DNA from: a virus
UHGV virus genome: UHGV-0361196
Reading direction: 5' to 3' (one strand)
DNA: 39,311 nucleotides
Shown: positions 2,695 through 39,311 of the stretch, in pieces
How the letters are laid out: every line of letters begins with the position of its first letter
How positions within the stretch are numbered: position 1 is the first letter of the stretch
Notes under the pieces: model-generated
Told to the model about the DNA's origin: nothing
Databases searched by the model: none
The model's input: the letters and a program-made list of their open reading frames with translations, nothing else
Made by a program: the position numbers and the translations under genes

Positions 2695-2870
2695 GAGAGG
2701 TAAATCATTTGATACTGCTGAAAAATCCGGGAGGAAAGTGGATCAAACGGGATTTGATGGGATAAAACAAACAGTTATGACGTAAAACAGTGTTATGCGC
2801 ACAACATGTGATTTGATACTACTGTCGCAAAGAAAGCTAAAAACGAAAAAATATTTGATACTACTGATTT
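2695..2870. repeat. left end (attL-like) with three putative transposase-binding repeats
   Basis: TTTGATAC at 2708..2715, 2812..2819 and 2854..2861 in the same orientation; L1 is about 100 bp from the adjacent L2/L3 pair, as in Mu attL; the reverse complement GTATCAAA recurs three times at the right end. Confidence 0.6.
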
Positions 2871-2895
2871 CTGCGATTTTAACGTTTTAAACAGG

Positions 2896-2932
2896 TTAAA
2901 AAACCAGCCGCGGGCTATTGGAATTAGCCCGC
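2896..2932 (-). terminator. candidate intrinsic terminator of repressor gene
   Basis: 8-bp stem GCGGGCTA / TAGCCCGC (2910..2917 / 2925..2932) with 7-nt loop; plus-strand A-run 2898..2903 gives a U-run after the hairpin on the minus strand; stem overlaps the stop codon. Confidence 0.4.
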
Positions 2933-3508
2933 CTTCGATTCTAAACTACTTGAGAGTTTATCGCTTTCAATTTCTGCCAAAATCTCTCTAACTCTTTCAT
3001 CCGATAAATGATCTAAAAGTAGAGCTGCTGCACGTTTTCGTCCTTCAAGTTGGATTAGTTCTTGATTCTCTGGTTCAAGTAACCGTGACAAGTACTTAGC
3101 TCCATTTAGCGCGAGGATTTTTGATAATCGCTCTGCCTCTGATGCTTCTAAAGCACTTAGTATAGCAAGAAGGCGCTGTAGCGTTATATCTAGGGGCAAT
3201 TGGACGTTTTCATCTATTTTAGGTGATATTGGTTCTATATCCTCCTTGCCAAAAACAAGCCAATCAATGCTCACCCCTTCTGCAAAAGCAATCTGACTAG
3301 CTACTTGTAGAGATGGTGTCGCATCTTTCTCAAAGTAGTTGTTAAGTGTTGAGAACGGTAGCCCCCACGCCTTCGCCACGGCAGTCTTGGAGCGCCCGCG
3401 CATTAGCATGGCTAGGCGCTCTTTAATGCTTTCTTTTTGAAACACAGGAAAAGAAAAATCACTTTCTTTTTCAGTGCTTCTTTCTTTTCTGTTAACCATA
3501 TGATTCAT
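2924..3508 (-). CDS. prophage repressor with XRE/lambda-cI-like HTH (Mu c functional equivalent)
   Basis: Only minus-strand gene in the prophage, divergent from ner as in Mu; HTH-like segment SKTAVAKAWGLPFSTLNNY followed by GVSIDWLVFG; start ambiguous (ATG 3508 or 3499 preferred over the GTG at 3559 that gives the 211-aa track ORF). Confidence 0.7.
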   Translation of the reverse strand: MNHMVNRKERSTEKESDFSFPVFQKESIKERLAMLMRGRSKTAVAKAWGLPFSTLNNYFEKDATPSLQVASQIAFAEGVSIDWLVFGKEDIEPISPKIDENVQLPLDITLQRLLAILSALEASEAERLSKILALNGAKYLSRLLEPENQELIQLEGRKRAAALLLDHLSDERVREILAEIESDKLSSSLESKAG

Positions 3509-3648
3509 AAAGAAATATCCTTTTGTAGATAAAAACCACCAAAGAAAGAGATAAAACACCTTTACTTTTCTTTTGTAGTGATCAAATATTTATCTGTAGA
3601 GATTATCCGGCGGTGTTATCCGCGCAGATAACTTTTAAGGATAAACGA
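3509..3648. promoter_or_regulatory. divergent early/repressor promoter-operator region
   Basis: Intergenic between divergent repressor and ner; repeated CTTTTGTAG-like motifs (about 3514..3530 and 3569..3585; variant TATCTGTAGAG about 3591..3601) and near-palindrome GTTATC-CGCGCA-GATAAC at 3615..3632; lies about 0.8-0.95 kb from the left end, where Mu has its operators and transposition enhancer. Confidence 0.5.
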
Positions 3649-3885
3649 ATGATGTCTATAAATGAAGTTGTTAAACAGGACTGGCACCCCGCGCATGTTG
3701 TCGCGGCGGTGCATGTAAAAGGTTTTACTTTACGCTCTCTGTCCATTGAAGCCGGTTTAAACCAGGATTCTTTAAAGAATGCCCTGTACCGCAAATGCCC
3801 AAAATATGAGCGCATTATTGCTGATGCTATTGGTGTTGCGCCGGAGGAGATCTGGCCCAGCCGTTACGCTCGTAAGGTGGCATAA
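3649..3885 (+). CDS. ner: Ner-like DNA-binding early regulator (Ner/Nlp family)
   Basis: C-terminal region ...ADAIGVAPEEIWPSRY resembles the Ner/Nlp family signature; RBS AGGA 9 nt upstream of ATG 3649; the track ORF from 3613 is probably a 5' over-extension. Confidence 0.8.
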   Translation: MMSINEVVKQDWHPAHVVAAVHVKGFTLRSLSIEAGLNQDSLKNALYRKCPKYERIIADAIGVAPEEIWPSRYARKVA

Positions 3886-3887
3886 AA

Positions 3888-5975
3888 ATGTTTGTATCAG
3901 TTAATGAGCTTGTAGGGTTACCAGGTATGCCGGGAACTGCGCAAGGGGTGCGGTATTCCATAAGGAAACTGGCCTCATCTGAGCATTTCAGGCGCAAACG
4001 TGCGGGTTCAAAAACCATTGAATACAGCATCGACTGCCTCCCTCCGGTTACACAACGGGCGTTACGTGAGCGACATGTAGCTCAACTGATGGCAAGCGCC
4101 CCGCGGGAGATAACTACCCAGCCTCCTGTAAAGCGTGAACGCAAACAAAATGTTGTACAGCCTGTTGAGGCATATCGCGGTTCGCCACAATTGGTAGAAG
4201 AGCGTCTGAATGCGCTTACGGAAAATCAACGTAAAGTTGCAGAAGCGCGCATTGCTCTTGTCTGTGAAGTTCTACGAATTAGCCAGGAGCCGGGATTCAG
4301 TTGTGCCAGCGCTATACGTTTTATTGTGTCGCGGTTAGCGCAGGGTAACCTGGAAGAACGCCTGGAATCTTTGGTCATTACTGCTAATGCCCGTAAAGGA
4401 AAAGAGCGAACTCTGAGCGCAATTACGCTCAAACGTTGGATAGCTGCGTTTAACAAAGCACAGAATGCCGCAGAACGACTGCTGTTACTGGCACCAGGAA
4501 AGCGCGACGAAATAAAACCGGAAGAAATTAGCTGGCTGCCTGAATTTCTGGCGCAGTATCGTCAGGCTAACGGCAGGCCTATGTCTGAAGCCTATGAGGA
4601 TTTTGTCGCTGATTGGCAGCGTCGCCATGCGGACGAACCATACATGCTGGAGGTGATGCCTTCCTATGATGTTGTCCGGTATGCCATGAAAAAACTGCCG
4701 GAAGTGGTGAAACAAAAAGGGCGCGTTACCGGCAGTGAATACCGTCAGCTTGAAGGATTCACCCGCCGCGACTGGACAGCTATGCCGGTGAATTATGTCT
4801 GGATTGGTGACGGTCACGGTATGAAGCTGAAATGTGCACATCCGATCCACGGGCGTCCATTCTCACCGGAAGTTACATTTGTGATCGACGGTGGAACCCG
4901 GTTTGTTGTTGGCTGGAGTCTTGACCTTGCCGAGAACGTGTTCGCCGTTGCCGGTGCGATACAGCACGGCATTCGCAACCACGGAAAACCGTTTCTGTAT
5001 TACTCGGATAATGGTTCTGGTGAAACGGCTGACATACTGGACAAAGAGGTCGTGGGTATTCTGCCCCGCCTGGGGATTAAACACCCTACCGGTATTGCCG
5101 GTAATCCACAGGGGCGCGGCATTATTGAACGCCTGAACCGGACACTGCCGATGCGTATAGCCAGGAGGTATCGCACCTATTTTGGCAAGGGTGCTGACCG
5201 GGAATCGTTGCGTGTACTTAACCGTGATCTGCGTTCAGCGTTTAACGCCATGCAACAGGACAAGCCTCTGAACGACCGCCAGAAAGCTGCAATGCGCGAG
5301 CTACCATCGTGGGCGGAGCTTATTGAGGCTATTCGTGAAGGCGTGGAATGGTACAACAACCGCCCGCATTCTGAGCTGCCAATGAAACCGAACGGGCGGC
5401 ATTACAGCCCGGCAGAGTTCAGAAAAAAACGCCTGGCAGAAGAAGACACCGAAATTGAGTGGCTGAGTGATCTTGAGCTGCGCGACATGTTCCGCCCGAT
5501 GGTGGAACGCCCGGTAAGACGGTGCGAAATTCAGTGGCTGAACAATATTTACTACGCGCCGGAGTTGCGTGACGAACACGGTCGCAAAGTACTTATCAGT
5601 TATGACATTCATGACGCCGAGCGAATTACGGTACGTCGCAAGGACGGCAGCTTTATCTGTGAGGCGATATGGAACGGCAATAAACGCACAGCCTTTGCTG
5701 TCAGTGCTGAATATCACAAACAACAGCAGCGTATTAAAGGAATGCGCAAACGTGCTGAGGAAAAAATTCGTGATGCTGAGGATGAAGGCATTCAGATACT
5801 GGAGCACAAACAGGCTGAACCCTGGCTGGATAATGTTTATCGCCCGGTTGGCAATACGGTAACCATCCAGCAACAGGATTATGAGGAGGATTACGACGAA
5901 GATTATGAACGCGATTTCAGGCTGGGTTTGCAGAAGCTTGTAGCCATACAGGAACAGGATGATCCGCTGGCCTGA
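3888..5975 (+). CDS. DDE transposase, MuA family (divergent from Mu A)
   Basis: 695 aa; N-terminal enhancer-binding-like domain (VNELVGLPGMPGT...KTIEY) and candidate DDE residues in IGDGHG, YYSDNGSG and GIIERLNRTL, aligned by eye to Mu A catalytic core; acidic C-terminus; RBS AAGGTGG. Confidence 0.9.
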   Translation: MFVSVNELVGLPGMPGTAQGVRYSIRKLASSEHFRRKRAGSKTIEYSIDCLPPVTQRALRERHVAQLMASAPREITTQPPVKRERKQNVVQPVEAYRGSPQLVEERLNALTENQRKVAEARIALVCEVLRISQEPGFSCASAIRFIVSRLAQGNLEERLESLVITANARKGKERTLSAITLKRWIAAFNKAQNAAERLLLLAPGKRDEIKPEEISWLPEFLAQYRQANGRPMSEAYEDFVADWQRRHADEPYMLEVMPSYDVVRYAMKKLPEVVKQKGRVTGSEYRQLEGFTRRDWTAMPVNYVWIGDGHGMKLKCAHPIHGRPFSPEVTFVIDGGTRFVVGWSLDLAENVFAVAGAIQHGIRNHGKPFLYYSDNGSGETADILDKEVVGILPRLGIKHPTGIAGNPQGRGIIERLNRTLPMRIARRYRTYFGKGADRESLRVLNRDLRSAFNAMQQDKPLNDRQKAAMRELPSWAELIEAIREGVEWYNNRPHSELPMKPNGRHYSPAEFRKKRLAEEDTEIEWLSDLELRDMFRPMVERPVRRCEIQWLNNIYYAPELRDEHGRKVLISYDIHDAERITVRRKDGSFICEAIWNGNKRTAFAVSAEYHKQQQRIKGMRKRAEEKIRDAEDEGIQILEHKQAEPWLDNVYRPVGNTVTIQQQDYEEDYDEDYERDFRLGLQKLVAIQEQDDPLA

Positions 5976-5982
5976 ATAAAAA

Positions 5983-6006
5983 AACAGTCCGCGGGAACGG
6001 ACTGTT
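5983..6006 (-). terminator. hairpin between A and B, terminator-like on the minus strand
   Basis: 9-bp stem AACAGTCCG / CGGACTGTT with 6-nt loop; a run of 7 A precedes it on the plus strand (U-run after the hairpin on the minus strand); no T-run after it on the plus strand. Confidence 0.35.
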
Positions 6007-6048
6007 AAACGAAGGAAACAAAGCTGATTTGAATAAACGGAGAATAAT

Positions 6049-6981
6049 ATGACCGATATTAATGATGTTTTCAACACGATTAACACACTTATTACTGACG
6101 GCGTAAAAACACAAAGCGCTATTGCTAAAGAAGCGGGGGTGTCGGAGGCCACTCTTTCTGAACTTCGCAAAGGCCGTTACAAAGGTGATACCGAAGGGAT
6201 GCATGACAAATTACTGATGTGGCATCAGAGCTGGCAAAAAAGTCTGGAGTTACCTGGCGCACCACAACTTGTGGAAACACAAACCCTCCGTGATTTGCGC
6301 GAGCTGTTTCAGACCGTGCGTGTTATGGGCTGTATCAGCGTTCTGGTTGGTGTGCCGGGTGTTGGTAAAACCGTTGCGGCCCGTGAATACAGTAACCGTG
6401 TATCTAATACCTGGATGGTGACCCTTTCCCCTGCACACTCAACAGTGACTGAGTGTCTGCTGGAGCTGGCAGACGCGCTGGGAATTGATAATCCGCAAAG
6501 AAATAAAGGCGCATTGACCCGCGCCATTCGCAAAAAACTGAATGGCACACGCGGTCTGGTTATTGTGGATGAAGCTGACCACCTGAGCATGGACGGGCTG
6601 GAGCAGTTACGCGCCATTCAGGATGCAACCGGCGTCGGGATGGTATTGATTGGCAACCCACACCAGTTAGCCAAAGCCACACACCGGGGAACAGATGACC
6701 TTGCACGTTTGTTCAGTCGTTTCGCCAGAACAAAGCAACTACGTAAAGCCAAAAAGGCTGACGTGGTGGCAATTGCGAAAGCCTGGGGCATTGAGGGCGA
6801 AGATGAATTATCACTCATGCAGAGCATCGCGGAAAAACCAGGTGCATTACGTGTATTAACTCATACGCTGAATCAGGCGTGGCTGGCTGCCAGCGGGAAA
6901 GGCGTTCCTCTATCCAAAGGCTACATTAAAGCAGCTTTTAAAGAGGTTTACAGCAACCCGAAATTACTGAACTGGTGGTAA
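6049..6981 (+). CDS. MuB-like AAA+ ATPase transposition target-capture protein
   Basis: 310 aa; Walker A GVPGVGKT and Walker B VIVDEADH; N-terminal HTH-like region; directly after transposase gene as in Mu; RBS GGAGA. Confidence 0.9.
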   Translation: MTDINDVFNTINTLITDGVKTQSAIAKEAGVSEATLSELRKGRYKGDTEGMHDKLLMWHQSWQKSLELPGAPQLVETQTLRDLRELFQTVRVMGCISVLVGVPGVGKTVAAREYSNRVSNTWMVTLSPAHSTVTECLLELADALGIDNPQRNKGALTRAIRKKLNGTRGLVIVDEADHLSMDGLEQLRAIQDATGVGMVLIGNPHQLAKATHRGTDDLARLFSRFARTKQLRKAKKADVVAIAKAWGIEGEDELSLMQSIAEKPGALRVLTHTLNQAWLAASGKGVPLSKGYIKAAFKEVYSNPKLLNWW

Positions 6982-6992
6982 GGGGATAAATA

Positions 6993-32914: not shown

Positions 32915-33348
32915 CCGATTTAGCCATTATCTGGACGAACGGACGCGGCGATATTGCACAGGATGGCATTGATATGCTGACCGACGACAGCCTGACAACC
33001 GATGTGACAATCTCCCTGTTTACAGACCGGCGCGCGCTGGATTCTGACACGCTGCCGGATGGTTCAGATGATCGCCGTGGATGGTGGGGTGACAGTTACC
33101 GCGACCGCCCCATCGGTTCGCGGTTGTGGCTGTTATCACGTGAAAAAGCCACACCGGATACGCTGGAACGCGCCAGAGGGTATGCCGAAGAGGCGCTGGA
33201 ATGGCTGAAAACAGCGGGCCGGGTAAGTGCGATTAACGTCAGAGCGGAACAGTTACATCAGGGCTGGTTATACCTCTACATTGCCCTGACATTACCGGAT
33301 GGTTCCGTTATTCCTTATGAGTTTAAAGCAGCATTTAACGGGGTTTAA
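32911..33348 (+). CDS. baseplate wedge protein (W/gp25-like)
   Basis: 145 aa; ATGA overlap with upstream gene. Confidence 0.7.
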   Translation: MTDLAIIWTNGRGDIAQDGIDMLTDDSLTTDVTISLFTDRRALDSDTLPDGSDDRRGWWGDSYRDRPIGSRLWLLSREKATPDTLERARGYAEEALEWLKTAGRVSAINVRAEQLHQGWLYLYIALTLPDGSVIPYEFKAAFNGV

Positions 33349-34431
33349 ATGGCTTATTCACCACCGACATTATCATCGCTGATTGCCCGTACAGAACAGA
33401 ATATTGAACAGCGCCTGCCGGGTAGCTGGCCTCAGGCCCGTGAAAAAACGCTGAGTGCCATTGCATATGCTCAGGCGGGCCTTGCTGCCGGTTGTCACGA
33501 GCATATTTCATGGGTTGGACGGCAGATTATCCCGTCGACAGCAGATGAAGATGAGTTGCTGGAGCACTGCCGGTTCTGGGGCGTGCGCCGCAAACAGGCG
33601 ACAGCCGCCAGCGGCCCGCTGACTGTCACCACATCGGCAGCGACCACCATTCCTGCCGGTACACGCTGGCAGCGTGCTGATGGTGTGGTTTACAGCCTGG
33701 CTGATGCCATTGTGATTGACCGTGCAGGAACGACGGAAATTACCGTTACCGCACTGGCTGCCGGTGAAGCAGGAAATACCGGTGAGAATACCCTTTTAAC
33801 GTTGATCACCCCGGTTGCCTGTGTTGTTTCCGATGCCATCACTGTAAAAGGGTTTTCCGGTGGGGCTGATATTGAGAGTGCAGCGGAGCTGCTGTCACGG
33901 CTGGAATATCGTGTCCAGTATCCTCCGTTCGGCGGTAATCAGTTTGATTATGTTCGCTGGGCGCGTGAAGTCAGCGGCGTTACCCGTGCCTGGTGTTTTC
34001 CGACATGGAAAGGCGGTGGCACAGTCGGGGTGACGTTTGTTATGGATAACCGGAGCAATATTTTTCCACAACCGGCAGACGTGGAACGCGTGGCGGATTA
34101 TATCGCCGGTCATACTGACCCGATTACCGGTCTGATTGTCGGACAGCCTGACGGTGTAAATGTCACTGTATTTGCGCCAAAGGCAAAGCCGGTAAATCCA
34201 CGGATTTATATATCACCGAAGACAGCCGAACTGAAACAGGCTATTACCCACGCCATTAATACCATGTTTTTTAATGAGGTGACGCCGGGCGGCGCACTTG
34301 CCCCCTCCCGTATTATCCGTGCGGTGGCAGGTGTTACCGGTCTGGATGATTTTGAAGTGCGTTTCCCGACAGAGATCCAGCGTTCGGAGAATACAGAACT
34401 GTTAACACCGGGGACAATTGAATGGCTGTAA
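33349..34431 (+). CDS. baseplate J-like protein
   Basis: 360 aa; assigned by size and position. Confidence 0.8.
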   Translation: MAYSPPTLSSLIARTEQNIEQRLPGSWPQAREKTLSAIAYAQAGLAAGCHEHISWVGRQIIPSTADEDELLEHCRFWGVRRKQATAASGPLTVTTSAATTIPAGTRWQRADGVVYSLADAIVIDRAGTTEITVTALAAGEAGNTGENTLLTLITPVACVVSDAITVKGFSGGADIESAAELLSRLEYRVQYPPFGGNQFDYVRWAREVSGVTRAWCFPTWKGGGTVGVTFVMDNRSNIFPQPADVERVADYIAGHTDPITGLIVGQPDGVNVTVFAPKAKPVNPRIYISPKTAELKQAITHAINTMFFNEVTPGGALAPSRIIRAVAGVTGLDDFEVRFPTEIQRSENTELLTPGTIEWL

Positions 34432-34964
34432 CACCCTATCAGACGGCCTTTCTGCAATTACTGCCGTCAGGGCTTGCCTGGAATAAAAGCCCCGACAGCA
34501 AATTATCTGCGCTGGCGCAGGCCATCAGCGACGTGATTGCCACTGCGGCGGATGATGCGCGGCAAATGCTGCGGGAGCGTTTCCCGTCCACATCCCGCTG
34601 GTATCTGGGTGAGTGGGAATCATTTCTGGGGTTGCCGGACTGTACAAGCGAAAACGGCACCCTGTCCGAACGCCAGCGGGCTGCCGCGAATAAAATGCGT
34701 ATGACCGGCAATCTGAGTCGGCGCTTTTATGAATGGCTGGCTGCGCAGTACGGTTTTACCGTCAGGCTGACGGATTCCACAGAAGGCCAGTGGGTTACGC
34801 AGGTCAATATTTACGGTATTAAAAATTATCGCAACGCAACGGTGCTGGATAATGTTCTGACGCCGTTACGTGTTTATGAATCGGGTGCGCTGGAATGTTT
34901 ACTGGAGAAATATAAACCTGCACATCAGATTTATAAATTTGTTTACCATGACGGAGATAACTAA
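34422..34964 (+). CDS. baseplate/tail protein (P2 gpI-like position)
   Basis: 180 aa; overlaps both neighbours. Confidence 0.7.
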   Translation: MAVTPYQTAFLQLLPSGLAWNKSPDSKLSALAQAISDVIATAADDARQMLRERFPSTSRWYLGEWESFLGLPDCTSENGTLSERQRAAANKMRMTGNLSRRFYEWLAAQYGFTVRLTDSTEGQWVTQVNIYGIKNYRNATVLDNVLTPLRVYESGALECLLEKYKPAHQIYKFVYHDGDN

Positions 34965-37528
34965 TGTTTTATATTGATAACGACAGCGGCGTAACCGTCA
35001 TGCCGCCCGTATCCGCCCAGCGTAGTGCTATCGTTCGCTGGTTTTCAGAAGGTGACGGGAATAATGTTATCACATGGCCCGGCATGGACTGGTTTAATAT
35101 TGTGCAGGCGGAGTTATTAAACACGCTGGAAGAAGCCGGTATTCAACCGGATAAAACAAAATTAAACCAGCTTGCACTGTCCATTAAAGCCATTATGGGC
35201 AATAACGCGCTGCTGATAAAAAATAACCTCAGCGAAATAAAAACGGCCGGGGCATCAGCACAGCGCACAGCACGTGAAAATCTGGGTATTTATGATGCCA
35301 GTGTGAGCAAAAAGGGGCTGGTTCAGCTAAGCAGTGCAACAAACAGCACCAGTGAAAAGCTGGCAGCAACGCCAAAAGCGGTCAAGGCAGCAAATGACAA
35401 CGCAAATTCACGTCTGGCGAAAAATCAGAACGGTGCAGATATCCAGGATAAATCAGCTTTTCTGGACAATGTTGGCGTTACCAGCCTGACGTTTATGAAA
35501 AACAATGGCGAAATGCCGCCTGATGCTGATCTGAATACATTTGGTCCCGTTAAGGCTTATCTGGGGATCTGGTCTAAAGCTACCTCAACTAACGCAACAC
35601 TGGAGAAAAATTTTCCGGAAGATAATGCTGTCGGTGTGCTTGAGGTTTTTGCTGCCGGCAATTTTGCAGGCACGCAACGCTTTATCACGAGAGACGGCAA
35701 TGTATACATGCGTAAACTCGCCAATAAGTGGAATGGTACTGATGGTCCATGGGGCGTATGGCGTCACACTCAATCAGCTACCCGCCCTTTGAGTACGACT
35801 ATAGACCTGAATACGCTTGGAGCCGCCGAACATCTTGGTTTATGGCGTAACAGTAGCTCGGCTATAGCTTCATATGAACGCAATTATCCAGAGGAAGGCG
35901 GCTTTGCTCAGGGGACGCTTGAGATCCTCGAAGGCGGGAATTATGGAAGAACACAACGTTATACCACTCGCCGTGGAAATATGTATGTCCGCTGCCTTGC
36001 GGCAAGCTGGGATGCATCAAATCCGCAGTGGGAACCGTGGTTAAGAGTCGGTCATCAGTCAGAGAGTCGTTATTACGACGGGGATTTGAATGATGTGACT
36101 TCACCAGGTATTTACAGCGTTACAGGTAAAGCGACCAACGGTCCAGTACTGGACGGAAACGGCGTGACTGTACTCGGCATTCTGGAAGTGTTGAGGCGGT
36201 TTGATGGTGTTAATGTATGGCAGCGTTATACAACTGCCGGAACAGGTACAACCCTTAAAGGCCGCACCTTTGAGCGCGTCTTTACCGGCAGCTCATGGAG
36301 CGAATGGCGGGAAGTCTACACCTCGTATTCACTTCCCCTGAATCTGGGTATCGGCGGTGCTGTGGCAAAGCTCACCAGCCTGGACTGGCAGACCCACGAC
36401 TTTGTGCCGGGCAGTCTGATAACCGTTCGGCTTGATAACATGACCAACATTCCCAACGGTATGGACTGGGGCGTCATTGATGGCAACCTGATAAACATCG
36501 CAGTTGGTCCGAGTGATGATTCCGGTACGGGGCGCTCAATGCATGTATGGCGCAGCACTGTAAGTAAAGCGAACTACCGCTTTTTTATGGTGCGTATTTC
36601 AGGAAATCCGGGACGCCGCACGATTACAGCAAGACGAGTACCAATCATTGACGAAGCCCAGACATGGGGCGCGAAACAGACATTCAGTGCTGGCCTTTCT
36701 GGTGAACTGTCCGGCAATGCGGCGACAGCAACAAAGCTGAAAACAGCCCGTAAAATTAATAACGTTTCGTTTGATGGAACATCAGATATTAACCTGACGC
36801 CGAAAAATATTGGTGCATTTGCTTCAGGAAAAACAGGAGACACCGTTGCGAATGATAAAGCCGTTGGATGGAACTGGAGTAGCGGAGCCTATAACGCAAC
36901 TATTGGTGGGGCATCAACGTTAATTCTTCATTTTAATATCGGGGAAGGAAGTTGTCCCGCCGCCCAGTTTCGCGTTAATTATAAGAACGGTGGTATTTTT
37001 TATCGTTCTGCTCGTGACGGTTACGGATTCGAGGCTGACTGGTCTGAGTTTTATACCACAACGCGAAAACCTACAGCGGGAGATGTCGGTGCACTGCCGT
37101 TATCTGGTGGTCAATTGAATGGTGCTCTGGGTATAGGAACATCCAGTGCTCTTGGCGGTAATTCGATTGTTTTGGGTGATAATGACACGGGCTTTAAACA
37201 AAATGGTGATGGTAATCTGGATGTTTATGCTAATAGCGTCCATGTTATGCGCTTTGTCTCCGGAAGCGTTCAAAGTAATAAAACCATAAATATTACGGGG
37301 CGTGTTAATCCCTCGGATTACGGTAACTTTGATTCCCGCTATGTGAGAGATATCAGACTTGGCACACGTGTTGTCCAGACCATGCAGAAAGGGGTGATGT
37401 ATGAGAAAGCAGGGCACGTAATTACCGGGCTTGGTATTGTCGGTGAAGTCGATGGTGATGACCCCGCAGTATTCAGACCAATACAAAAATACATCAATGG
37501 CACATGGTATAACGTTGCGCAGGTGTAA
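34964..37528 (+). CDS. tail fibre protein with three tandem knob-like modules
   Basis: 854 aa; N-terminal region typical of Mu S / P2 H-type fibres (...SSATNSTSEKLAATPKAVKAANDNA...); three tandem modules of about 85 aa at aa 188-452; C-terminal Gly-rich region. Confidence 0.85.
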   Translation: MFYIDNDSGVTVMPPVSAQRSAIVRWFSEGDGNNVITWPGMDWFNIVQAELLNTLEEAGIQPDKTKLNQLALSIKAIMGNNALLIKNNLSEIKTAGASAQRTARENLGIYDASVSKKGLVQLSSATNSTSEKLAATPKAVKAANDNANSRLAKNQNGADIQDKSAFLDNVGVTSLTFMKNNGEMPPDADLNTFGPVKAYLGIWSKATSTNATLEKNFPEDNAVGVLEVFAAGNFAGTQRFITRDGNVYMRKLANKWNGTDGPWGVWRHTQSATRPLSTTIDLNTLGAAEHLGLWRNSSSAIASYERNYPEEGGFAQGTLEILEGGNYGRTQRYTTRRGNMYVRCLAASWDASNPQWEPWLRVGHQSESRYYDGDLNDVTSPGIYSVTGKATNGPVLDGNGVTVLGILEVLRRFDGVNVWQRYTTAGTGTTLKGRTFERVFTGSSWSEWREVYTSYSLPLNLGIGGAVAKLTSLDWQTHDFVPGSLITVRLDNMTNIPNGMDWGVIDGNLINIAVGPSDDSGTGRSMHVWRSTVSKANYRFFMVRISGNPGRRTITARRVPIIDEAQTWGAKQTFSAGLSGELSGNAATATKLKTARKINNVSFDGTSDINLTPKNIGAFASGKTGDTVANDKAVGWNWSSGAYNATIGGASTLILHFNIGEGSCPAAQFRVNYKNGGIFYRSARDGYGFEADWSEFYTTTRKPTAGDVGALPLSGGQLNGALGIGTSSALGGNSIVLGDNDTGFKQNGDGNLDVYANSVHVMRFVSGSVQSNKTINITGRVNPSDYGNFDSRYVRDIRLGTRVVQTMQKGVMYEKAGHVITGLGIVGEVDGDDPAVFRPIQKYINGTWYNVAQV
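35525..36319. repeat. three tandem, diverged protein-level repeats in the tail fibre gene
   Basis: Modules beginning LNTFGPV, LNTLGAA and LNDVTSP share the pattern G-x-LE[IV]-x5-8-Q-R-[FY]-x-T-x4-8-R-x7-8-W-x-x-W. Confidence 0.5.
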
Positions 37529-37531
37529 ATT

Positions 37532-38059
37532 ATGCAGCATTTAAAAAACATTAAGTCAGGTAATCCAAAAACAAAAGAACAATATCAGCTAACAAAGAAT
37601 TTTGATGTTATCTGGTTATGGTCCGAAGACGGAAAAAACTGGTATGAGGAAGTAAGTAATTTTCAGCCAGACACAATAAAGATTGTTTACGATGAAAATA
37701 ATATTATTGTCGCCATCACCAGAGATGCTTCAACGCTCAACCCTGAAGGTTTTAGCGTTGTCGAGGTTCCTGATATTACCGCCAACCGACGTGCAGACGA
37801 CTCAGGTAAATGGATGTTTAAGGATGGTGCCGTGATTAAGCGGATTTATACGGCGGACGAACAGCAGCAACTGACAGAATTACAGAAGGCAACTTTGCTT
37901 TCCGAAGCTGAATCCGTGATTTTGCCGCTGGAACGCGCTGTCAGGCTGAATATGGCAACAGATGAGGAGCACAGCCGACTGGAGGCATGGGAACGCTACA
38001 GCGCTCTGGTCAGCCGCGTGGATACGGCAAAGCCAGAATGGCCACAAAAACCAGAGTAA
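37532..38059 (+). CDS. U: tail fibre assembly chaperone (Mu U / lambda Tfa-like)
   Basis: 175 aa directly after the fibre gene; C-terminal segment [32 protein letters not shown] typical of Tfa proteins. Confidence 0.8.
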
Positions 38060-38064
38060 AAATT

Positions 38065-38092
38065 AAGGCCCGATAGCGGGCCTTCTCTTATT
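38065..38092. terminator. hairpin terminator between convergent tail-fibre-assembly sequences
   Basis: 8-bp stem AAGGCCCG / CGGGCCTT with loop ATAG, followed by CTCTTATTC. Confidence 0.55.
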
Positions 38093-38291
38093 CTGGTTGT
38101 TCGGAAAACGTTACTGGCAGGCTGGAGGGGTCTGTATATTCGACCTTCTGCGCATAGAGCATCCACTCGGTTAATTTTTGTTTATTCTCGTCGGAAATGA
38201 TACCCAGCCGTAGCGAACGCATATAGAAAACGACGATCGAATCAATTGAATCGATCGGTAATACAGATCGATTATGCCCCAATAACCACAC
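38088..38291 (-). pseudogene. relic of an inverted second tail-fibre-assembly gene (G-segment remnant)
   Basis: Minus-strand 67-aa ORF whose last 30 aa (SDENKQKLTEWMLYAQKVEYTDPSSLPVTFSEQPE) mirror the Tfa C-terminus pattern D-E-x4-L-x2-W-x2-Y-x3-V-x3-D; convergent with the intact chaperone gene; no variable fibre part or invertase follows. Confidence 0.35.
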
Positions 38292-38320
38292 TCAACCCAT
38301 GATGTTTTTTAAGATAGTGG
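38231..38320 (+). promoter_or_regulatory. mom operon promoter region with Dam-methylation (GATC) cluster
   Basis: Three GATC sites within 35 bp (38235..38238, 38253..38256, 38266..38269), then T6 tract 38305..38310 and candidate -10 TAAGAT; matches the known Mu mom promoter architecture; RBS AAAGGAGG before com. Confidence 0.6.
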
Positions 38321-38343
38321 CGAATTGATGCAAAGGAGGTGAG

Positions 38344-38532
38344 ATGAAATCAATTCGCTGTAAAAACTGCAACAAACTGTTATTTAAGGCGGATTCCTTT
38401 GTTCACATTGAAATCAGGTGTCCGCGTTGCAAACGTCACATCATAATGCTGAATGCCTGCGAGCATCCCACGGAGAAACATTGTGGGAAAAGAGAAAAAA
38501 TCACGCATTCTGACGAAACCGTGCGTTATTGA
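38344..38532 (+). CDS. com: Com, zinc-finger translational activator of mom
   Basis: 62 aa with CxxC...CxxC (CKNCN, CPRCK); near-identical to Mu Com as recalled. Confidence 0.9.
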
Positions 38533-39190
38533 GTATGAAGGCCAGATTGTTGGCTATGGTTCAAAGGAGCTGCGCGTTGAAACCATATCCTGCTGGCTGG
38601 CCCGCACAATTATTCAGACAAAGCACTATTCCCGCCGTTTTGTGAATAACTCTTACCTCCACCTGGGAGTATTCAGCGGACGCGATCTGGTTGGCGTTCT
38701 CCAGTGGGGATATGCCCTTAACCCCAACTCAGGTCGTCGTGTCGTGCTTGAAACGGATAACCGGGGCTATATGGAGTTGAATCGCATGTGGCTACACGAC
38801 GACATGCCCCGCAACTCTGAATCACGGGCCATCAGCTACGCGCTGAAAGTTATCAGATTACTGTATCCGTCAGTGGAGTGGGTTCAGTCATTTGCTGACG
38901 AACGCTGCGGATGCGCAGGCGTTGTGTATCAGGCGTCGAATTTTGATTTTATTGGCAGCCATGAAAGCACGTTCTACGAGCTGGATGGTGAGTGGTATCA
39001 CGAGATAACGATGAACGCAATTAAGCGCGGTGGACAACGAGGCGTGTATTTACGGGCTAATAAAGAGCGTGCCGTGGTGCACAAATTTAATCAGTATCGC
39101 TACATCAGGTTCCTGAACAAGCGAGCAAGGAAGCGGCTAAATACTAAGCTATTCAGGGTTCAGCCATACCCTAAAAGCACTCCCGATTAG
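38453..39190 (+). CDS. mom: Mom, DNA modification protein (adenine modification, anti-restriction)
   Basis: ORF overlapping the 3' end of com in another frame, as in Mu; matches Mu Mom as recalled; the true start is probably downstream of 38453, near the com stop. Confidence 0.85.
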
Positions 39191-39268: not shown

Positions 39269-39278
39269 TTATACTGAT

Positions 39279-39311
39279 GTTGTTGTTCCTGCTACTGCTA
39301 CTGCTACTGCT
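39279..39311. repeat. short microsatellite in right flank
   Basis: (GTT)3 at 39279..39287 followed by (GCTACT)3 at 39291..39308, running to the window edge. Confidence 0.5.

Follow-up and report, generated by a model that had tools for sequence, protein, structure and literature searches.

Knob domains have been described in the R1 and R2 pyocin tail fibres of P. aeruginosa (6CL5, 6CL6, 6CU2; PMC6116203). These fibres carry two knobs, Knob1 and Knob2, and end in a lectin-like foot. R-pyocin fibres are most diverse in Knob2, and two-site binding, orientation of the fibre and triggering of the baseplate have been proposed for them (Buth et al. 2018, PMC6116203). Sialic acid is bound by a knob-like prism in K1F; saccharide binding by the pyocin knobs has been proposed only (PMC6116203). 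In Pseudomonas phage fibres, similarity of Knob2 tracks host range (PMC12625404). Knob-like domains are also present in phi11 gp45 (5EFV), phage K gp144 (5M9F), phi812 RBP (9EUF), AS12 gp42 (6EU4) and T4 gp34 (5NXH), which are mostly without useful sequence similarity to the fibre presented here and belong to other types of protein (tailspikes, baseplate RBPs). Two P2-like phages are also relevant. The GpH fibre of the plague-diagnostic phage L-413C is a mosaic with P2 H ends and a foreign middle, and it binds Y. pestis cells (PMC7460101). In phage P88, the residues behind a change of host range are close to the C-terminus (aa 716-746) and not in a middle region (PMC5285337). Finally, phage Mu, with its S/S' fibres (5YVQ, 8JU3), has an invertible G segment.

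The fibre presented here is neither a standard Mu S/S' system nor a full P2 gpH. It is found in the UHGV virus genome UHGV-0361196, in a stretch of 39,311 nucleotides that was analysed whole and that we call the window. A Mu-like prophage fills most of the window, with head and tail genes that are ~97% identical to those of Mu and D108. The genes gp47, gp48, fibre, assembly protein, com and mom follow one another as in Mu, and the fibre gene takes the same genomic position as Mu S, between gp47/gp48 on one side and com and mom on the other. The gene itself (34964..37528, + strand) is an ORF of 854 aa, and the short ORFs that overlap it in other frames or on the other strand were set aside as contained in a well-supported coding region. 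The original prediction placed three tandem knob-like domains at positions 35525-36319, which do correspond to residues 188-452 of this ORF, and it rightly called the fibre longer than that of Mu (854 aa compared with 504 aa for Mu S).

The N-terminal end of the fibre is that of Mu. Residues 1-173 match the PDB entries of Mu S (5yvq and 8ju3), and the Mu Sc-type N-terminal domain (aa 1 to ~110; 34964..35293, + strand) shares 99% identity with Mu S in aa 1-105. This domain presumably attaches the fibre to the baseplate. It sits at the same locus as in Mu, where gp47, gp48, com and mom are ~97-98% identical to their Mu counterparts. The Mu-derived part ends at a crossover zone (35294..35348, + strand), at the start of a conserved Phage_fiber_2 repeat that is present in both fibre lineages (PF03406, aa 113-154). 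In a three-way DNA alignment, the window is Mu-like up to nt ~330 of the fibre gene and like the P2-like Yersinia phage vB_YpM_50 from nt ~385 on. The two matches overlap at positions 35324-35442, inside the Phage_fiber_2 repeat; positions 33000-35442 are 97.4% identical to Mu DNA, and positions 35324-38043, which cover the fibre from aa ~120 and the assembly gene, are 94.2% identical to vB_YpM_50. Fibre nt 360-2565 are 95% identical to Peduovirus fibre genes, and the relatives at 94% DNA identity from residue ~120 on, assembly gene included, are fibres of P2-like Yersinia/E. coli phages. At the level of sequence, these alignments establish the fibre as a Mu S N-terminus joined within the Phage_fiber_2 repeat to a P2-like distal part.

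Downstream of the fibre gene there is a tail-fibre assembly (chaperone) gene of 175 aa (37532..38059, + strand; PF02413, E 3e-33). It falls within the same 94.2% block in common with vB_YpM_50 and was co-transferred with the distal fibre. The locus includes a distal part homologous to gpH and a cognate assembly protein homologous to gpG (PF02413), both in this block of 94.2% DNA identity. The P2-type N-terminal baseplate-binding domain, of ~167 aa, has given way to the Mu S N-terminus of 110 aa. The fibre aligns to vB_YpM_50 H from H residue 168 on, and a Pfam scan of the fibre finds no PF12571, the P2-type N-terminal domain, though homologues carry it. From residue ~120 onward, the architecture is identical to that of the Peduovirus fibres of L-413C (GpH, 913 aa) and vB_YpM_50 (911 aa), with a fibre repeat, three knobs, a domain that we name D4, a shaft, an S'-like domain and a tip. 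Identity to L-413C gpH depends on the segment: only 47-66% for the knobs, 67% for D4, and 96-99% for residues 561-854. By these identities, the distal cassette belongs to the L-413C-type P2-like gpH group. A host range different from that of Mu, also part of the original prediction, is plausible; beyond residue ~120 an L-413C-type P2-like fibre and its chaperone replace the Mu sequence.

Residues 188-455 contain three tandem units of 83-93 aa. Unit 1 (R1, aa 188-280; 35525..35803, + strand) is identified by segment alignments and unit profiles, and in the structure model presented below it has a pLDDT of ~80 and a five-strand pattern. Unit 2 (R2, aa 281-372; 35804..36079, + strand) aligns to R1 over ~80 residues with ~41% identity. 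The BLOSUM62 local score is 180, compared with a mean of 26 and a SD of 5 for 500 shuffles (z = 30.8). On this score, units 1 and 2 are clearly homologues. For unit 3 (R3, aa 373-455; 36080..36328, + strand), pairwise alignment with R1 or R2 is not significant (z 1.6-2.2). An HMM seeded with R1 and R2 only, and extended by homologous units of other fibres, finds R3 with an i-E of 1.9e-4, obtained before the inclusion of any R3 from the present protein. Two separate HMMs, one of R1/R2 type and one of R3 type, detect each other with E-values of 6e-9 and 3e-4. The kinship of unit 3 with units 1 and 2 appears through profiles only. The three diverged repeats of the original prediction are then borne out, R2 directly against R1 and R3 by way of the profiles, and the Gly/Trp/Arg pattern that it described agrees with the motif common to the units, DLN..(G)..Y/W ... 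(NYP) ... G.LEV ... QR(Y/F)TT ... R ... W..W.

Self-BLASTP of the fibre returned the identity match alone. There is no DNA-level direct repeat joining the units, which indicates that the duplication is old. Unit 3 is the most diverged and the most variable of the three, with the highest entropy among homologues. Within unit 3, the entropy is 0.79 at non-strand positions and 0.44 at strand positions (p = 0.004).

A repeated fold is visible in the structure prediction. The AlphaFold2 model of residues 170-620, made from 27 sequences, has a pLDDT of ~80 over R1-R3; it is a model of the monomer, and trimeric packing is assumed. The secondary structure follows one plan in all three units, with a short turn of helix at DLN and five strands after it, in keeping with a loop-joined antiparallel sheet of 5-6 strands and ~80-90 aa per unit. 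In a Foldseek search against the PDB, the top matches are phi11 gp45, 80alpha RBP, phi812 RBP, the R1 pyocin fibre 6CL5 (E 1e-5) and the P68 fibre. A profile of 73 diverse units, compared with PDB sequences, finds Knob2 of the R2 pyocin (6cl6_A, E 2.9e-12) and of the R1 pyocin (6cl5_A, E 3.3e-11), as well as 6ct8/6cu2 (E 2.1e-10), with a second and weaker match to pyocin Knob1. The P68 fibre and the phi812 RBP are also matched by this profile. The R1/R2-type and R3-type profiles taken separately match pyocin Knob2 as well, with E-values of 2.6e-10 and 3e-6. Solved knob domains are matched by sequence and, independently, by fold, and both kinds of match agree with the knob-like character originally predicted for the repeats.

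These results bear on whether the repeats could be a compositional or chance similarity with no common fold. A pairwise z of ~2 for unit 3, and the lack of a Pfam or NCBIfam model for the region, are what such a similarity would give. The z of 30.8 between units 1 and 2, profile links of E 6e-9, one order of secondary structure elements in all three units, and the independent sequence and fold matches to solved knobs are not, and we give chance almost no probability of being the explanation. The z of units 1 and 2, the cross-profile matches and the matches to solved knob domains are together enough to refute it.

Three things place the units in the knob family: the unit profile, the Foldseek matches and the name in RefSeq. 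Scanned against Pfam and NCBIfam with cut-offs as loose as E 10 or E 1, neither the repeat region nor any single unit gives a match. E. coli 1290 and S6 carry a corresponding locus whose RefSeq protein (WP_419668749.1, PGAP), different from the present fibre at 2 residues, is named "pyocin knob domain-containing protein", as are many homologues. That name has to come from a source beyond Pfam/NCBIfam, because neither gives a match on the knob region. The source is presumably a CDD 'pyocin_knob' model. Compared with the R1/R2 pyocins, the present fibre has three related knobs and a probable fourth instead of two, only ~21% identity to the pyocin knobs, and a host in the Enterobacteriaceae. An array of three is not unusual. 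Amongst 140 representatives (clusters at 50% identity, with at least one unit), 43 proteins have one unit, 52 have two and 31 have three, and higher counts of 4, 5 and 6 units are found in 10, 1 and 3 proteins. In Mu S, we find no knob array by sequence, and the best local alignment past the common N-terminus is 28% identical.

The units are followed by D4 (aa 456-560; 36329..36643, + strand), predicted to be a beta domain of six strands. We find no sequence similarity between D4 and units 1-3, and D4 is probably a fourth knob-like domain unrelated to them in sequence. Of all segments, it is the one that homologues conserve best, at 91-97% identity in proteins of full coverage except for two distant representatives (60-72%). 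The next segment is a fibrous shaft (aa 561-614; 36644..36805, + strand) with matches to many PHROG tail-fibre families and 98% identity to L-413C gpH. The low confidence of the model over this segment is as expected of an intertwined trimeric segment. A domain like Mu S'/T4 gp37_C (aa 615-711; 36806..37096, + strand) matches PF12604 and residues 321-417 of PDB 8ju3 (170 bits). It resembles a domain of Mu S', and its DNA is 81% identical to that of S', which is on the opposite strand of Mu. In the distal part (aa 712-854; 37097..37528, + strand), a gp37-type trimerisation region precedes a C-terminal tip of P2 gpH/Mu S type, in place of the lectin-like foot of the pyocins. This part has weak matches to PF20744 and PF06820, matches 6f45 (a phage long tail fibre tip) and the C-terminus of Mu S, and is 96-98% identical to L-413C GpH. 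The tip is presumed to be the primary receptor-binding end. We then read residues 188-455 as a tandem array of three pyocin-knob domains, placed midway along a hybrid fibre and next to a probable fourth knob-like domain that is unrelated in sequence, and we give this reading a probability of roughly 0.8.

The present phage lacks the fibre switching of Mu. At position 38214, the 3' end of U' jumps directly to the end of gin. The ~1.98 kb of Mu that are absent (Mu 33658-35638; L003 7665-9644) include most of U', S'v, the right gix site/G boundary, and all of gin but its last 36 nt. What is left of U', the second assembly gene (38088..38214, - strand), reaches up to this deletion junction and is annotated by PGAP as a partial pseudogene in the near-identical locus. 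From 38214 to 39174, covering the last 36 nt of gin followed by com and mom, identity to Mu is 97.9%. The left gix sequence (gixL), which lies inside S, has been replaced, and no gix-type inverted repeats or recent tandem duplications are found in 34900-38500. The locus has no gix-flanked invertible part with S'/U' and Gin. With S', gin and the gix sites lost, there is one fixed fibre only.

A partly deleted G-inversion module, reduced to a pseudogene of U' and the last 36 nt of gin, is also what one could see if the fibre were an unused relic of a decaying prophage, its domain content having no present function. The same arrangement is found in just 2 of 5426 complete E. coli genomes, which would agree with a relic. 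Yet the 854-aa ORF and the chaperone are intact, no disruption appears in the ORF list among the ~97% Mu-identical structural genes, and near-identical distal parts are functional in plaque-forming P2-like phages. Moreover, E. coli 1290 and S6 carry the fibre locus with 99.9% identity at an insertion site other than the one here, so the element has transposed carrying the present fibre. We consider a relic quite improbable.

The distal fibre and its chaperone were gained by recombination from an L-413C-type P2-like phage. For a fibre in use, we propose the following mechanism. The fibre would be a homotrimer, with folding aided by the co-transferred chaperone, and its first ~110 residues, from Mu S, would dock it onto the Mu baseplate. 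In each knob, sheets would pack round the three-fold axis with the loops pointing outward, and the loop-biased variation of unit 3 is indirectly consistent with a trimeric packing that exposes the loops. The C-terminal tip of P2/Mu type would make the primary contact with the LPS core, and the variable loops of the knobs may make a second and weaker contact with glycans higher up the fibre. This second contact could tune host specificity and fix the orientation of the fibre for baseplate triggering, as proposed for Knob2 of the R-pyocins. The knobs would be a secondary site for binding surface glycans.

The exchange of knobs independently of the tip fits such a secondary role. We compared only proteins that cover all domains. 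Amongst fibres that differ in their knobs and have a distal part 98-100% identical, the identities (%) to R1/R2/R3 of the present fibre are 95/98/100, 78/82/99, 82/72/57 and 98/98/72. In other fibres we see the converse, with the same knobs joined to unrelated distal parts. This mosaicism of the knobs could come from neutral recombination rather than selection.

The knobs could instead be purely architectural, serving to nucleate folding, to clamp the trimer together or to act as spacers for fibre length or stiffness, with host range determined by the C-terminal tip alone. Their unusual multi-core structure probably aids folding of the trimer (Buth et al., PMC6116203), and the range of 1 to 6 knobs in related fibres is reminiscent of length modules. 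The high conservation of D4 whatever its neighbours is as expected of a structural module. The P88 determinants near the C-terminus (PMC5285337) are a further argument that the tip alone may set specificity. Against an architectural role, units 1-3 are far more variable than D4 and the shaft, the variation of unit 3 is concentrated in non-strand segments that are presumably loops, and sets of knobs are shuffled among fibres with identical tips. The diversity of Knob2 in the R-pyocins (PMC6116203) and its correlation with host range in Pseudomonas phages (PMC12625404) also speak for binding. We see a purely architectural role as a real possibility, if somewhat doubtful, and favour the secondary glycan contact. 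A further proposal, which we think unlikely, is that the knobs form a second module of specificity, exchanged on its own, that gives a combinatorial host range to the enterobacterial fibres of P2-, Mu-, P1- and T-even type that share it. The knob cassette would read the O-antigen/outer core and the tip cassette the inner core, and D4 and the Phage_fiber_2 repeat would be fixed recombination joints. If this were true, the present Mu derivative would have swapped G inversion, with its two alternative tips, for one fibre with two binding sites.

Knob domains, fibre mosaicism at conserved repeats and co-transfer of the chaperone are all established already, and the protein is already labelled in RefSeq. 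In the literature examined we found no description of a graft from Mu to a P2-like fibre with loss of gin, which is a modest variation. The finding raises no new biological question. It provides an annotation, that of a pyocin-knob array within a P2-like fibre cassette on a Mu baseplate adaptor, and a concrete example of a fibre swap in which a short conserved repeat joins the sequences of unrelated myophages, together with the loss of Mu switching. The mosaic, in which knobs, D4 and tip are exchanged independently and D4 is conserved, suggests natural break points for engineering the host range of Mu-, P2- and pyocin-based particles.

None of the PLSDB plasmids has the same fibre locus. Positions 1-2690 of the window are DNA typical of conjugative plasmids, from which this copy of the prophage resides in a plasmid. 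Comparison to the ydcO insertion of E. coli 1290 puts the ends of the prophage at window positions 2691 and 39271, and only 4 of the 5 bases of the target-site duplication match at both of the insertions compared.

The phage is restricted to one fibre, encoded by a gene of 854 aa at 34964-37528 in which a Mu S N-terminus is joined to the distal part of a P2-like gpH. We place the recombination crossover between the two at 35294-35348, the start of the Phage_fiber_2 repeat that is common to both; the P2-like donor block then extends past the fibre gene and through the assembly gene, the tail-fibre chaperone gene directly 3' of it, to about 38043. The fibre gene also has the left gix sequence replaced. 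Most of the G segment, the invertible fibre switch of Mu, is deleted in the window at 38088-38343, with a deletion junction at 38214 where a U' pseudogene remnant adjoins the last 36 nt of the invertase gene gin. Compared with Mu, what is missing is S'v, the right G boundary and all of gin except those 36 nt. Within the fibre gene, positions 36814-37093 (fibre aa ~618-710) have 81% DNA identity to Mu S'. In Mu, S' is the G(-) fibre and is encoded on the opposite strand. One domain of the fixed fibre is therefore related to Mu's alternative fibre, not to S.

The highest conservation in the fibre is found in D4 (36329-36643, fibre aa 456-560), the domain directly after the third of the pyocin-type knob units. 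Most homologues carrying D4 are 91-97% identical in it, regardless of the adjacent domains, and D4 may be a fixed joint linking exchangeable cassettes. Its predicted structure, modelled with low confidence, suggests a fourth knob-like domain that is unrelated in sequence to the three units.

E. coli 1290, a genome with a 99.9% identical fibre locus, carries an independent insertion in ydcO, and comparing the two insertions places the prophage ends in the window at 2691 and 39271. The termini read 5'-TATAGAGAGG...GCGCGCTTTA-3' and form a 25-nt imperfect inverted pair, with AAATCATTTGATAC common to both; the ends of Mu are TG...CA. The expected 5-bp duplication does not come out cleanly, because the flanks match at only 4 bases per insertion (TACT in the window, GTGA in strain 1290). 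Host flanks occupy 1-2690 and 39272-39311. The left one, with genes for a DUF3560 protein and a methyltransferase, is 98.6-99% identical to DNA almost confined to E. coli plasmids (6862 plasmid places versus 69 chromosomal). Judged by this plasmid-type flank, the Mu-like prophage appears to have integrated into a plasmid; the same insertion is absent from all PLSDB plasmids and complete E. coli genomes.

The early region (2696-6988), which includes the repressor side, transposase A (695 aa) and B, has no match to Mu or D108, and similarity to both starts only at about 6988. It matches instead the Mu-like Yersinia phages vB_YpM_5 and vB_YpM_6, so the prophage is mosaic at its left end too.
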